This document shows, in pieces, positions 35,201 through 47,200 of a stretch of 64,000 bases of DNA (positions are counted from its first letter, which is position 1; each line of letters begins with the position of its first letter). Location: assembly GCA_051362555.1 (NCBI GenBank), contig CM120641.1, forward strand, positions 4,340,001 through 4,404,000, in the 5' to 3' direction. The notes below the pieces were generated by a model. That model saw only the letters and a list, made by a program, of their open reading frames with translations, made no database searches and was not told where the DNA came from. Made by a program: the position numbers and the translations under genes. Source of the DNA: Lingula anatina (taxonomy: Eukaryota; Animalia; Brachiopoda).

Positions 35201-38200
35201 CAATGTGTATGTACATTTTTTTTCTAGTTAGTACATACTGCCCCAGGAACTTCCGAGTTCTTTCTCCATGGTGGTTTAGCACCGTACTCGTACCATGAGT
35301 ACATGGTGGAGGCCTGTAATAGTGTGGGATGTGTGAACAGCACTAGTGTCAGAGAGAAAACACTCGCAGCACGTAAGTCAGCAGTGTCATCTTGATATTT
35401 TACTTTCTCGATCATGTACTGGCAGATTCATGGGGTACAGGGGTACAGGGGGCACTTTTTCCTTTACTCCCCTCATCTTTGAGCTTAAAAAAAATGCATC
35501 ATTGCACAGTGGTAATAGTTTACCTTAACTGTTGATTTTGCCATAAAAATGATATACTTTTGCTTAAAAAATTTGATACCTAATCCCTATTGAAAGCTAT
35601 TCATTACCTACAACTTATGATCTTTTCCAGCACCACGTGGCCAAGGCAAGCCAAGTGTGATTGGCTACAATATGTCCACCATGGAAGTGAAATGGTCACC
35701 CCCACAGGAATTCAATGGACCTGCACCTCATTACCTGGTAGAAAGGACCAGCACTGCCTTCAGTTACCCTCCACTCAGAGTGGAATATGGCACACGTTTT
35801 CCAGGGGGAGGCTATTACAAGTTCCCTCCAGAAACTCTGAAGCAAGGTGTTGGCTTCACAGGTGGGGCAGAATGCTTGGCTTGGACAAACAAGACAGAAA
35901 TATTCTTTACTGAAATCTAGACATATGTAAATACTCTCTGGTAAAATTTTGAAACATCATGGATATGCAAAGTCACTAAATTAAAATCAGCATGCAAACA
36001 TTAAAATAATTTCATTATTTAAAGGAATTGGGCAGAATTCACATGTTTGTTTCACCATCTCAAAAAGTCTGATCTCAGAGTTTTGAATAGGTTGATTTTT
36101 TGTTGCATCTCCACAATTGTTTTGATGCTTTGATGCTGCATGTGTTTTAAATGTAGACAGTTAGAGGTATTTTCAGTAAATTTTATGAACTCAAATCACT
36201 CATCAATATGTTTTCTCTGATATTTCAGGTGTTGACTTGTGGTTTAAGACATCAAACCTTCATGGTCTGTTGATGTTTGCTGCCTCTGAAGGTCAGCAGG
36301 AGGAGTTTATAGCTCTACAACTCAGAAATGGAAGACCCTGGTTTTTGTTTGATCCACAAGGTAGGATTTTTACCCTTTATATTTTCCAGCCATGCATTGC
36401 TTTCAACTTTTTAATGCTAGATTTTTAAAGTAGGCAGATTGCTTTGATATGTTTTTTAAGACTATTTTTATTAAAAAGAACAATAGCAGTTATACTTTTT
36501 AGATTTATGTACTTGAATGTTTTTGATATTCTTTTAAGGAAATGTGGTGCTATAATAGATGAAAAAAGTTTTACATGACTATTTAATGACCATCATATGA
36601 TAATAAGGTTGAACCAGTGAAGCCATGGTTCTGAATTTTGCTGGGTGCCAAACTCTTTATTTCTAACTCTGCAGTTACAGGAAATACTTCTTAAAATATC
36701 ATGGATAGAGTAAATTCATAATTATATAATTATAGCCCCAGAATTATTGCGTGGCACAGGTAAACAACACAACTGTTCAGATTATATATGTGTGAATATA
36801 TATCCTAGTTGTAGTTGAAAGAGTTCTGATCTGGGCAGGAGGAGAAAACTCACTAATGCATCACCTTATTCCTGACGTCATGTATAATACCCAGCTTCCC
36901 ACATGAGCTTATGACACACCTAATATATAATTTCAAACAAAATCAGACTCACAAAGTTTCACTTTTTACTATCCCATCTGGCAACTGCCCAATTATACAA
37001 AATACCTAGAACTGACACAATTAACCCCAGTTTTACACATGAATTGTTGAAGGAGATAAACGTTTGATTTCATATATCAAAAGAAATAGGTTGGTTAACT
37101 ACAGTCACATGAATTTTTATCATTCTCACAAACTTGTTATTTGTAGAGAACTTTAGTATGTTGCACAGTGTAGAACAACTATTATTTTACCTTGAAATCA
37201 ACACATGCTGCAAACACAGTCACCACATTTCTTTTACACCAAACACAACGTGCTGCACTCTGTTTCATCAAACACGAAGGGTGACCCTCAATCGCACTTG
37301 ATACAATTCACTGTGCTGTGGTACCTTATGCACCATATGTTGTCACATCTAATACCATGACCAACACATGCAAACACATTCATTTCACATTGTTGGTAGT
37401 AATCACCTTGATCTTAGATATTTTAGTAACCTAACTGGAAATGCCCAGATCAGAGCTCCTTTTTCATATCTCCAGGATTTATTAGAGAATGAAAGAATGG
37501 GTTCATTGAAGAATAGATCCTTTTCAACTCTTTTAATATTTGAAGAAGTGATGTATATATTTTAGGGACATCGCTTAAGACACCTAGTTCCAATGTCACT
37601 CACTGCCTTGAATAAGAAGGCATACTAATTAAAGCAACAGTTTTCACTTTTCTGATTGCATTTTAATAAGAACTGCATTGGTATGTTTAGACTTGAACCT
37701 TTTTATATTTGCATCATGGTTTCAGACGTTGGTATGTCTTGAATCGGCATGCAGTAGTAGACATGTGTTCACCAACTTAAAGACTTATAAATATACAAAG
37801 AGTCCATTTAGATTTAAATCCCTAAAGTTATAAACAGATGGTATACATGTATGCCAAGAAGAGTTCATTTTACCCAGTAGTTAAACAAGATGGTGAACAT
37901 ATTGAGAATATATATATCTTACCCTGTACAGAATCACTATAAATGCAATGTAGATATTCACAAAGAGACACACAATTGTCGGTAACCTGTCAAATGACTG
38001 CATTCCATTCACAAGTACATGTAGCAGGCATGCTAATGTTTCACAGATACACCCTGTGGTTCAGAGCCATCTTCAGTGATGGCCTAAGTGTTATGTTATA
38101 GAGAGGTGAGTCACAGTTATACCCTGCATCTTAGGGTGCACAGATATTATCCTGTCAAAGAAATATGCATATGCAAATGATTGGGTTCAATTGTTATTAG

Positions 38201-44200: not shown

Positions 44201-47200
44201 GGGCTGTGTGCGTGACATCAAGATCTTACACCAGGAGTACCCTGAGGAGATATGGCAGCCCGTAGACTGGGCAGATGCCACAGAGAATGTGGACGCTCTC
44301 CACAGCTGGGAGGGATGTCCCGTGGAATTGGAGGCACCTCCAGCCATACAGAAATCTGATACAACTCATTTTCTTGGGAGGGGTAAGGAGTTTTCCTTGT
44401 TCTTGTTATCTGTAGTTTCTTTACCAAAGAAAACAGAAAAAGGCACAATAGAATAGTCAATACCAAATACAAATCTGCTATTGTGCTCAGTTGCTAAAAT
44501 TGCCCACTGCTGCCACCTTTAAGTTTATGCACTATATTGATTCTTTTTTTGGTATACTAAGTGTGCCATGCATGTTAAGATCCATTCTCTTCTTCCTCAG
44601 TTCAGTGGGATTTGTATGGACAAAATTTCCTAGTCAGTCATTTGTAATAATATTTTTTTCTCAATGTGAGAGTGTAAATTTTTTGTGCACTTTAAAGCAG
44701 TTCAAACTAAGTATTGTGTCAATTAACACACTATGTTACCAACATGTTGTTATATCTCCAGGTTATATTGCATTTCCAATGGATGCAAGCGCCAGTCTAG
44801 AAAGCACCATAAAAAGGGGCAATGATTTTGATATACGGTTTCAATTACGTACAGAGTTAAAAACCAGTCTACTATTCTTTGCCTATGGAGGACTGGAAAC
44901 CTATTTTTATGTCCAAATGATCGATGGTTCTCTGTTTGCGGAGTTCAGCACACCTGTAGCAAGAGGGTATGTTCTTTATCCCCACCATTTGGTTAACTTG
45001 TGTGACGGTCAGTGGAAAGAAATATTCGTTCTGAAAAAAGGACAGAAACTGCTTATTCAGGTGGACAGGGGGAATGAACGCACCAGTGGGAATGACAAGA
45101 TCACGGCGTATCTGAATTTGGTCTCTCCATTGTACATTGGTGGAATTCCTATGAATTCAGAGGCTGAGCAGTTTGTGAAGGATAACAACATTGCAATGGT
45201 CAAGGAAGGATTTGGTGGCTGTATGAAGAACTTTCGCATCAAAGGTTTCTTGAAGTTGGACGTTCTGACCAAATCAACTAGCATTCTCAATGTGAACATG
45301 GATGGCTGTCCCCCCTATGTCCCCAGCTTGGCTCCCTGTCAGGCCTCTTCCAGTGTGTTTGTGTATAACGGAACTGGGAACATCACTTACAATTCAGGAC
45401 TGAATATTTTCACAGGTTGGTGCTACATTTGTATGTTATGGGAATAGAATATTGAAGAAAGAGAAAAATACAAAGCATTATAAGCATATATAGTGGTGGA
45501 GATCAATGGGTGAAATTTGAAAAGAATATTGTCCCAAAATTTTATAACATTGGATAGTTGCCATTTTTTAAGAACAGTGTGCCTTTTGTGTACATGTTCA
45601 CATTTATTTTAATTTATTTTCCCTTATTTTTCTGGATTCTTATGCAAGATTTCTTATCTTTCAGACTACTTGTACCGTGTTTATGCTGTGAATGATGCAG
45701 GGAATACCTCCAGTAGCTGGACCATTGGAAAGACTAAGGAAGGGCGTAAGTGGTTCACAGTCTTATATCTAGCACAATTACAACACATTGTCACACCAAA
45801 CACAATCAGAGTACCATCTTATGATCACAGATGCAAATATTCTTTTACTTATAGTCCCAGATGGGATATCTCTCTCTCTCTCTCTCTCTCTCTCTCTCTC
45901 TCTCTCTCTCTCTCTCTCTCTCTCTCTCACACACACACACACACACACACACACACACACACACACACACACACACACACACACACACACACACACACAC
46001 ACACACACACACACACACACACACACAGCATATTATGAGATTGTGATATTTGAACAGCAGAATCAAAATGACATTATTTCTCTCCTAGCTCCCAATGGTA
46101 TGTCTCCCCCCTACAATGTGCGTGCCCACAGTGGGTTTGTCATAGGTGCCCAGTGGTCACACCCTACTGGTAACACTGGCCTGCTGACCAAGTACATGCT
46201 GCGAGGTTATGACTGGAGGAACCTCTCCATGGCACCAAGAGAGACAGAATTCCTGAATACTTCCATAACATATGGTATGTGTATTGGTATAATTTCTGTA
46301 TGAAAGCAATGATTTTCTGATTTGTCATTTCTAAATTTGTCAGTTCTAAGCTGTTACATATGTTTTGCAGAATCATTTAATCTTCTTTTGCGTATGTCCT
46401 GTGTGTCATTCTATTTTTAGCAGTTGCTTTTTTTTTTCAAAAAGAAAGCAACTAATTAAATGAAGATTCATTATATATGAAAGCTGCATGTTTGTCATAG
46501 TCAAATCAGGTGCACAGTGAGTTAAAAACTCAGCTAGAAGAATTTTACTCGTAAAATTTATTATAGAAAATTCTATCACTACCATCCTGGTGACAAGAAA
46601 TAATAGAGTGACCACTGATTCTTTTTAATTTGGTGATTTCCCTCCTCTGAGCCTCAAGTTTACACCTAAATTCATGTAGCTGACCTTTTTCTAGGTAACC
46701 TGACCACTGCAATCCCCTTCACTCCATACAAGCTGGTCCTGGTGGCGTGTACTGCTGGAGGATGTGCCGAGAGCGCAGGAGTCAATATTACCACACCAGA
46801 GGAAGGTAAAGATGGCATATAGTCGGCTGTTATTACATCACTGAAGATTTTGTCATCATACACAAACTGTGCTCTACCTAGTTTTTTGTTTGATTAAAGT
46901 TCTTATTACATAAGATGTATGTAATATCTGCTTTGTACTAGTTTATATCACATAGGCCTGTTCACACTGAGCTTATTGGCTTAGCTAACTACTGTGCACT
47001 AACTCCTTCTTGCTGAATGAAATCAGTTTTTACAGATTATCACGCCTCCACCTTGCATTAAGCAGAAAACAGAAAAACTGGTGATTAAACAAGTACAGAG
47101 GAAACAAGAGATGGTGTGTTAGTCAGTTGATCTGACTCCAGAGTCCTCATGGAGTTAGTTAGCAGTAGCTAGGTCGATAAATTCATTGTGAACAGGCCAG

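Follow-up and report, generated by a model that had tools for sequence, protein, structure and literature searches.

In the brachiopod Lingula anatina, the first laminin-G domain (LamG1) of usherin, the human deaf-blindness protein, is probably built from two successive pairs of tandem-duplicated, mutually exclusive exons, one A and one B exon being taken for each LamG1 so that the predicted ligand-binding edge of the domain varies. The evidence comes from a 64,000-nucleotide (nt) stretch of DNA, hereafter the window (GenBank assembly GCA_051362555.1, contig CM120641.1, positions 4,340,001 to 4,404,000 of the forward strand); all coordinates are those of the window, on the plus strand unless stated otherwise. 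Two constitutive exons frame the region, C5 upstream (36229..36360), which encodes the first strands of LamG1 and ends FDPQ-G, and C3 downstream (44181..44382), which encodes the end of the domain. Between them lie A1 (38522..38653; 132 nt, phase 1-1), an exon of a long type with two N-x-T sequons in its loop; A2 (39419..39544; 126 nt, phase 1-1), of the short, ancestral type; B1 (41771..41889; 119 nt, phase 1-0); and B2 (42350..42468; 119 nt, phase 1-0). The initial annotation of this DNA had described four intact exons in the order A1-A2-B1-B2 inside usherin LamG1, and all their coordinates, lengths and phases proved exact. AG precedes and GT follows each of the six exons.

That the gene is usherin was established by tblastn with named usherins: about 40 exons are collinear with the usherins of Pinctada, Capitella and Saccoglossus, and the domains follow the order that defines the family, laminin N, laminin EGF, FN3, two LamG and an FN3 array. 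The signal from sequence identity is weak: among 2,700 shared codons it is 48.8% for Capitella, 47.4% for Acanthaster and 45.6% for Pinctada. Vertebrate and other deuterostome usherin (USH2A, PMC3781144) is the same gene, with the same domain order and LamG1 sequence family. A scan for further duplicated exons in the same part of the gene gave only matches that were read as ordinary EGF and FN3 repeats.

A1 and A2 are paralogous, as had been proposed, with 19 of 43 columns identical (44% amino acid identity; z=12 against 2000 shuffles), and so are B1 and B2 (22 of 39 columns, 56%; z=17 against 2000 shuffles); the same comparison gave no significant similarity between A and B. On the Pfam LamG profile, A1 covers positions 41-73 and A2 47-75, which is the same LamG segment, and hidden Markov model scans found neither a third A nor a third B in the interval from C5 to C3. 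The two B exons differ most where, by alignment, strand J and the J-K loop would lie (SKTSE in B1, YGYAV in B2). The copies are therefore homologous neighbouring exons of similar length, with the same frame and splice phase, as in the description of tandem-duplicated mutually exclusive exons by Hatje et al. (2017). All four combinations of one A with one B read through without a stop, whereas B1 and B2 together, or no B at all, shift the frame to an early stop; the frameshift had been anticipated. The initial annotation laid little stress on the A pair, in which A1 and A2 together, or no A, keep the frame. Thus the frame safeguards the B pair only. In the mechanism that we propose, the spliceosome would select a single exon from each pair to assemble the domain, B exclusivity being backed by the frameshift and likely nonsense-mediated decay and A exclusivity, for want of such a safeguard, depending on regulation.

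The introns flanking the copies are dissimilar, as first described, no similarity appearing among the matches listed in a blastn self-comparison. This bears on whether the copies might be an assembly artefact, in the form of two haplotypes or a mis-joined repeat. The copies differ at about half of their residues and have unrelated flanks, the same long/short order of A exons is found in independent contigs, and RNA reads were also found for the introns on either side of A1 and A2; an artefact is hardly credible.

Nine raw RNA runs bear the same species label, and four of them, each read to 6-25%, were mapped to 35550-39700, giving 18, 10, 0 and 21 mapped reads (49 in total); the run without reads, X4, is no test, and junctions were listed from three reads upwards. 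In run X7, three reads join C5, which is covered by RNA, to A1, and three loose read ends past A1 match the start of B1 exactly, in sequence unique to that start, while the depth over A2 is zero. A1B1 is therefore a real spliced product, in which A2 is skipped. A junction that bridges a neighbouring copy from the first exon, as looked for by Hatje et al. (2017), is thereby found for the A pair only, from A1 to B1 over A2. The claim that the cassettes yield four isoforms is borne out for A1B1 alone, by these three and three reads; of the junctions that had been put forward for mapping, 36360-38522 and A1 to B1 were seen, and 36360-39419 is unlisted in the four runs at the three-read threshold. 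X7 differs from the window at 35698, 36254 and 38547 (exonic) in all covering reads, which is consistent with an allele or strain difference.

Related loci were sought by scanning metagenome contigs with the C5 exon, which gave 15 loci, 13 of them with a true C5; L014 and L015, whose matches were weak and not to usherin, were set aside. Contigs L002, L003, L010 and L012 stop short of the first A exon, those of L004, L006 and L011 break off inside or after a first A exon of the long type, and L008 has at least two A exons before its end. The five loci that reach B contain two (L001), two (L005), five (L007), one (L013) and one (L009) A exons, the last locus being bird-like (90% identical to chicken). 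L001 and L006 are likely molluscs, since they are closest to Pinctada (51 and 50% identity, against 44 and 46% to Capitella). Every complete A exon called in these relatives is bounded by AG and GT and has phase 1-1 (A1 of L011 is cut by the contig end). The lengths are 132 and 126 nt in L005, as in the window, and 132, 129, 129, 126 and 126 nt in L007, and within the clusters the long A1 type comes first and the short A2 type last. First A exons with far longer loops occur at L004:1590-1751 (162 nt) and L008:1324-1509 (possibly 186 nt), suggesting that the A1 loop can accommodate long insertions rich in sequons.

The Capitella teleta model ELU01149.1 has four tandem A-type segments (residues 758-924), each beginning Gly-Cys, followed by one B; judged from the protein sequence, the four segments would be separate exons. 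The models of Pinctada and Tegillarca have the short A type only. Identity of A2 is 63% with Capitella copy c, 59% with A5 of L007 and 49% with Pinctada, and that of B1 with the B of L005 is 67%. An A cluster of two to five copies thus recurs in other animals, which are likely worms and molluscs. Among 70 proteins with a strong C5 match, more than one A segment was found in the Capitella model only and more than one B in none, and the vertebrate and other deuterostome usherins in this set have one segment of each kind, as the initial annotation had said of vertebrates. The four joined segments of Capitella, and the fact that A1 and A2 together remain in frame, could be taken to mean that each A exon is an in-frame cassette spliced independently of the others, so that several may enter one transcript and the strands of LamG1 would be repeated. 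This is very improbable. All three X7 reads that leave A1 skip A2, and no A1-A2 joint is listed at three or more reads, at the low depth of 49 reads in four runs; copy number varies from 1 to 5 across species, yet in 69 of the 70 proteins the number of A segments does not exceed one, and the exception, from Capitella, is a gene model labelled 'hypothetical'. The joining of exons that are in frame is a common gene-prediction error, and ELU01149.1 probably joins mis-annotated alternative exons in this way.

The trees suggest that the A pair arose before the lineage of the window, since a later duplication is rejected. In a tree of A exons (28 rows, 42 columns; the first A exon of L008, with its ambiguous acceptor, was left out), A1 of the window groups with the first A exons of L004, L005, L007 and L011 (90/80, not starred). 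A clade of the window's A1 and A2 is rejected by the approximately unbiased (AU) test (p-AU 0.0086), as is one of the five L007 copies (p-AU 0.002); a clade of the L005 pair is not rejected (p-AU 0.20), nor was within-species duplication in an earlier tree of 21 A segments (p=0.116). L001 and L006 have long first exons that stand apart on a long branch of their own, so that the long type may have one or two origins (annelid-like and mollusc-like), and A2 is of the ancestral length. B1 and B2 group together weakly (75/78). On this evidence A appears to be an ancient shared cluster, and B to have been duplicated in Lingula anatina only among the loci examined. The A cluster is accordingly older and more widespread than had at first been guessed; it was found in several relatives, and a second B in none of the five loci that extend to it.

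The dN/dS estimate that had been called for was made between the copies by simple codon counting, in alignments that are short and near saturation: nonsynonymous (dN) and synonymous (dS) divergence are 0.61 and 1.27 for A1/A2, and 0.43 and 1.36 for B1/B2 (within-genome dN/dS ~0.32), which for both pairs points to divergence under purifying selection. Conservation is evident for A in the presence of both types in several relatives, and for B in the within-genome ratio. In a neutral simulation of the B1 copy (substitution only, 20,000 trials per distance), 8/20,000 trials at distance 0.5, and 0/20,000 at 0.75 or more, retained identity of at least 22/39 together with the open frame and the two splice sites. 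Since neutral copies so rarely keep a state like that of B2, this exon would have been under selection for most of its history, with which a recent silencing is compatible. The relatives' A clusters, the AU test, dN/dS and the simulation together uphold the earlier statement that the duplications are old and kept by selection.

How one exon of each pair might be chosen can be considered from predicted RNA structure. The 3' part of A2 (39516..39535) is predicted to pair with intron 40327-40347 over ~20 bp, looping out the A2 donor; two intronic arms in 43112..43416 (~43115-43131 and ~43391-43408) are each predicted to pair with the 3' end and donor of B2; and a further stem is predicted in the B1-B2 intron (41941..42171; ~41941-41958 with 42154-42171). 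Pairing of the 3' ends with the downstream intron is predicted at -39.0 kcal/mol for A2 and -39.5 kcal/mol for B2, and among the gene's 51 donor regions, of which 45 have approximate positions, these stems come second and third by z-score, in a ranking designed after the stems had been seen. Weak donors and the stems over the A2 and B2 3' ends may make the first copies the default, which fits the use of first copies in X7, and A2 and B2 would then be used in other tissues or stages. As a conserved mechanism the stems were rejected, because they are absent in relatives, where constitutive exons have z-scores that reach -3.4 to -3.9. Steric exclusion by a short intron is also unlikely, the A1-A2 and B1-B2 introns being 765 and 460 nt long. 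In ten scans for docking and selector sequences the best shared pairings were of -10 to -18 kcal/mol, three of them stronger by 1-2 kcal/mol than any of six shuffles and the others within the shuffled range; between species, no convincing conserved intron elements were found. Intronic inverted repeats of 20-30 bp, which may be either transposon ends or RNA stems, occur at 36816-36837/37442-37466, 42755-42784/43054-43082 and 40343-40373/40528-40558.

The same observations raise the question of whether the two choices are made together. All three reads leaving A1 enter B1, and none of them B2; the predicted A2 and B2 stems could repress or release both exons at once. Exclusion might then be coupled, with mainly two isoforms, A1B1 and A2B2, a scheme that refines mutually exclusive splicing of the two pairs and is not fully separate from it. 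However, three reads are too few to show coupling, the stem ranking has the weakness of design just described, and relatives with one B and two to five A exons pair several A with the same B, so that fixed matching of A to B is unneeded. We regard coupling as possible but doubtful.

What the exchanged segments would contribute to the protein may be considered from modelling and alignment. The LamG1 stretch of Pinctada, modelled with AlphaFold, has the LG/LNS fold (predicted local distance difference test score, pLDDT, 78; weakest over the B region) and matches the LG domains of laminin, pikachurin, agrin and neurexin, with which a profile search agrees; of the 26 PDB sequence matches, none is an usherin chain. 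Alignment places the SS3 insert of neurexin at the C5/A junction (3r05 against 3qcw), and SS2 and SS4 would presumably be located inside A and where B begins. Inserts at SS2 and SS4 switch ligand binding (PMC12665717). In LG domains, the Ca2+ ligands are on the D-E, F-G and J-K loops, with a conserved Gly after the F-G ligand; strand J is the least conserved, and the agrin KSRK insert lies in the J-K loop (PMC6450144). By alignment, A would start at this Gly and supply the strands after the F-G loop, and B would start with strand J and supply both that strand and the J-K loop. C5 has an acidic residue by alignment, and the J-K position aligned to what we take to be the Asn ligand of neurexin is Gly; the predicted Ca2+ site of LamG1 may for this reason be weak.

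A cysteine at the start of A and another in B are common to the window, Capitella, Pinctada and Tegillarca, and both are absent from the aligned deuterostome segments (7 for A, 14 for B). Taken alone, these cysteines and the identities above would mark the gene as likely spiralian, perhaps annelid. The co-occurrence of the two residues in all spiralian copies suggests a disulfide that would bond A to B, but counts as one evolutionary origin. In the loop that precedes the conserved Trp-His, 4/5 A1-group exons and 0/8 short-type exons carry an N-glycosylation sequon, and A1 would thus add N-glycans. By these means the isoforms would change the extracellular partner of usherin in different ciliated or sensory cells; in passages on vertebrate usherin, no partner for its LamG domains was found. 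A Littorina saxatilis protein of 727 residues (KAK7106322.1) has two LamG domains like LamG1-LamG2 of usherin, both cysteines and a long A-type loop, and is possibly a usherin-derived paralog or fragment.

Several points weigh against the proposal that two working pairs each contribute one exon. No junction into or out of A2 is listed among the 49 reads of the four runs at three or more reads. In runs X1 and X3, sense-strand reads fall on A2 and on introns as well but not on C5, and for this reason they look unspliced; two partly mapped X1 reads lie below the listing threshold, without placement. The mapped stretch ends at 39700, before B2 and C3. B is single in each of the five related loci whose contigs extend to it (four of them cover the whole interval to C3), and on that account the B pair looks lineage-restricted. 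The branch of B2 is longer than that of B1 (0.92 against 0.19), its left-out profile score is lower (53.8 against 61.2 bits), and no motif resembling a branch point lies within 120 nt of its acceptor. The trees rest on 39-42 columns and have no starred branch; the stems are unmatched in relatives, where 0/12 A exons have a z below -2; the docking and selector scans, of the window, L001, L005 and L007, gave no convincing pair; and the structural roles, the disulfide and the glycans are read from alignment only.

Part of this would also be expected if the A pair is working and B2 is silent or recently abandoned, leaving the two isoforms A1B1 and A2B1. The absence of RNA support, the lack of a second B in relatives (0/5), the longer branch and the lower score are all in keeping with such a history, as are the weak acceptor of B2 and the two predicted arms that would mask its donor. 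Against this, B2 has kept its length, frame, splice sites, cysteine and IG..TG.YIGGLP core despite near-saturated synonymous sites, a state that neutral decay rarely leaves in the simulation; we consider a silent B2 improbable, and retain the view that both pairs are probably used in a mutually exclusive manner.

Usherin would thereby join the known class of tandem-duplicated mutually exclusive exons, part of whose defining features it displays. Such exons (Hatje et al. 2017, PMC5740500; PMC8373072) are likewise homologous neighbours of similar length and the same phase, old and selected, with frame protection as in one of the pairs here, and are reported to be enriched in surface residues near functional sites; the usherin case differs in that two clusters stand back to back within one domain, and that of the bridging junctions looked for in each pair one, of the A pair, was seen. 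USH2A has no occurrence in the main texts of these two papers. As had been surmised, full-text literature searches, judged by their listings and the openings of abstracts, showed no earlier report of duplicated usherin exons, subscription papers being beyond reach, and automatic annotation of these exons may possibly exist already. The alternative splicing of neurexin at SS2, SS3 and SS4 and of agrin at site A is similar in that it acts within LG/LNS domains at or near the Ca2+-binding edge, where it changes partner binding (PMC12665717, PMC6450144). Those proteins add or omit short inserts, whereas here whole homologous segments are swapped, amounting to ~80 of ~175 residues. As in Dscam1/Mhc-type arrays, successive clusters can combine and copy number expands by lineage (2, 2, 4, 5). 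In contrast to those arrays with their docking/selector RNA pairing (PMC6071210), a handful of isoforms is expected here, and a convincing docking/selector pair was not found in the loci scanned.

In vertebrate and other deuterostome usherins there is one A and one B segment, with neither cysteine. The variants described for vertebrate usherin are a short and a long form, and the presence of USH2A in annelids and molluscs is stated as well (PMC3781144); Drosophila is without an obvious usherin homolog (PMC6031363). Ten echinoderm and tunicate RefSeq isoform pairs differ outside LamG1 in eight cases, and two differ from the N-terminus. Among echinoderm usherin isoforms (P0199/P0200, P0206/P0207 and P0215/P0162), a conserved optional segment of 20 residues recurs near residue 3,300, and two starfish usherins share a 5-residue variant near the C-terminus.

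Elsewhere in the window, LamG2 is encoded by a single-copy exon (44762..45415), and a search for its homologs at the 'longer' lengths had one neurexin as a match. A degenerate tandem repeat with a unit of ~20 nt (43980-44175) reaches the C3 acceptor. Upstream of usherin, a gene on the opposite strand encodes a uromodulin-like D8C domain (6591-6893, minus; Pfam PF23283, E 3e-22), to which a second stretch of that gene (2130-2525, minus) seems by eye to be related, without a Pfam match. Open stretches at 49572-50171 (minus) also have no Pfam match and by eye resemble a decayed retrotransposon gag fragment.

A more far-reaching and rather unlikely extension is that spiralian usherin LamG1 carries a lineage-expandable splice code, of two to five A exons and here two B exons, that predates the split of annelids and molluscs, each class of ciliated sensory cell having its own LamG1 surface and the glycan-bearing A1 switching a partner on or off. 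If true, the ancestral Usher link protein would bear a neurexin-like recognition code, and LamG1 would be the specificity site of usherin. The finding also flags a likely annotation error, the joining of four alternative exons in the Capitella model. That one LamG1 segment has been duplicated repeatedly and retained for long in what are likely annelids and molluscs points to this domain as a tuned binding surface. The exons provide a natural set of swap variants with which the ligand of LamG1 may be found, and they bear on the reading of human LamG1 variants.

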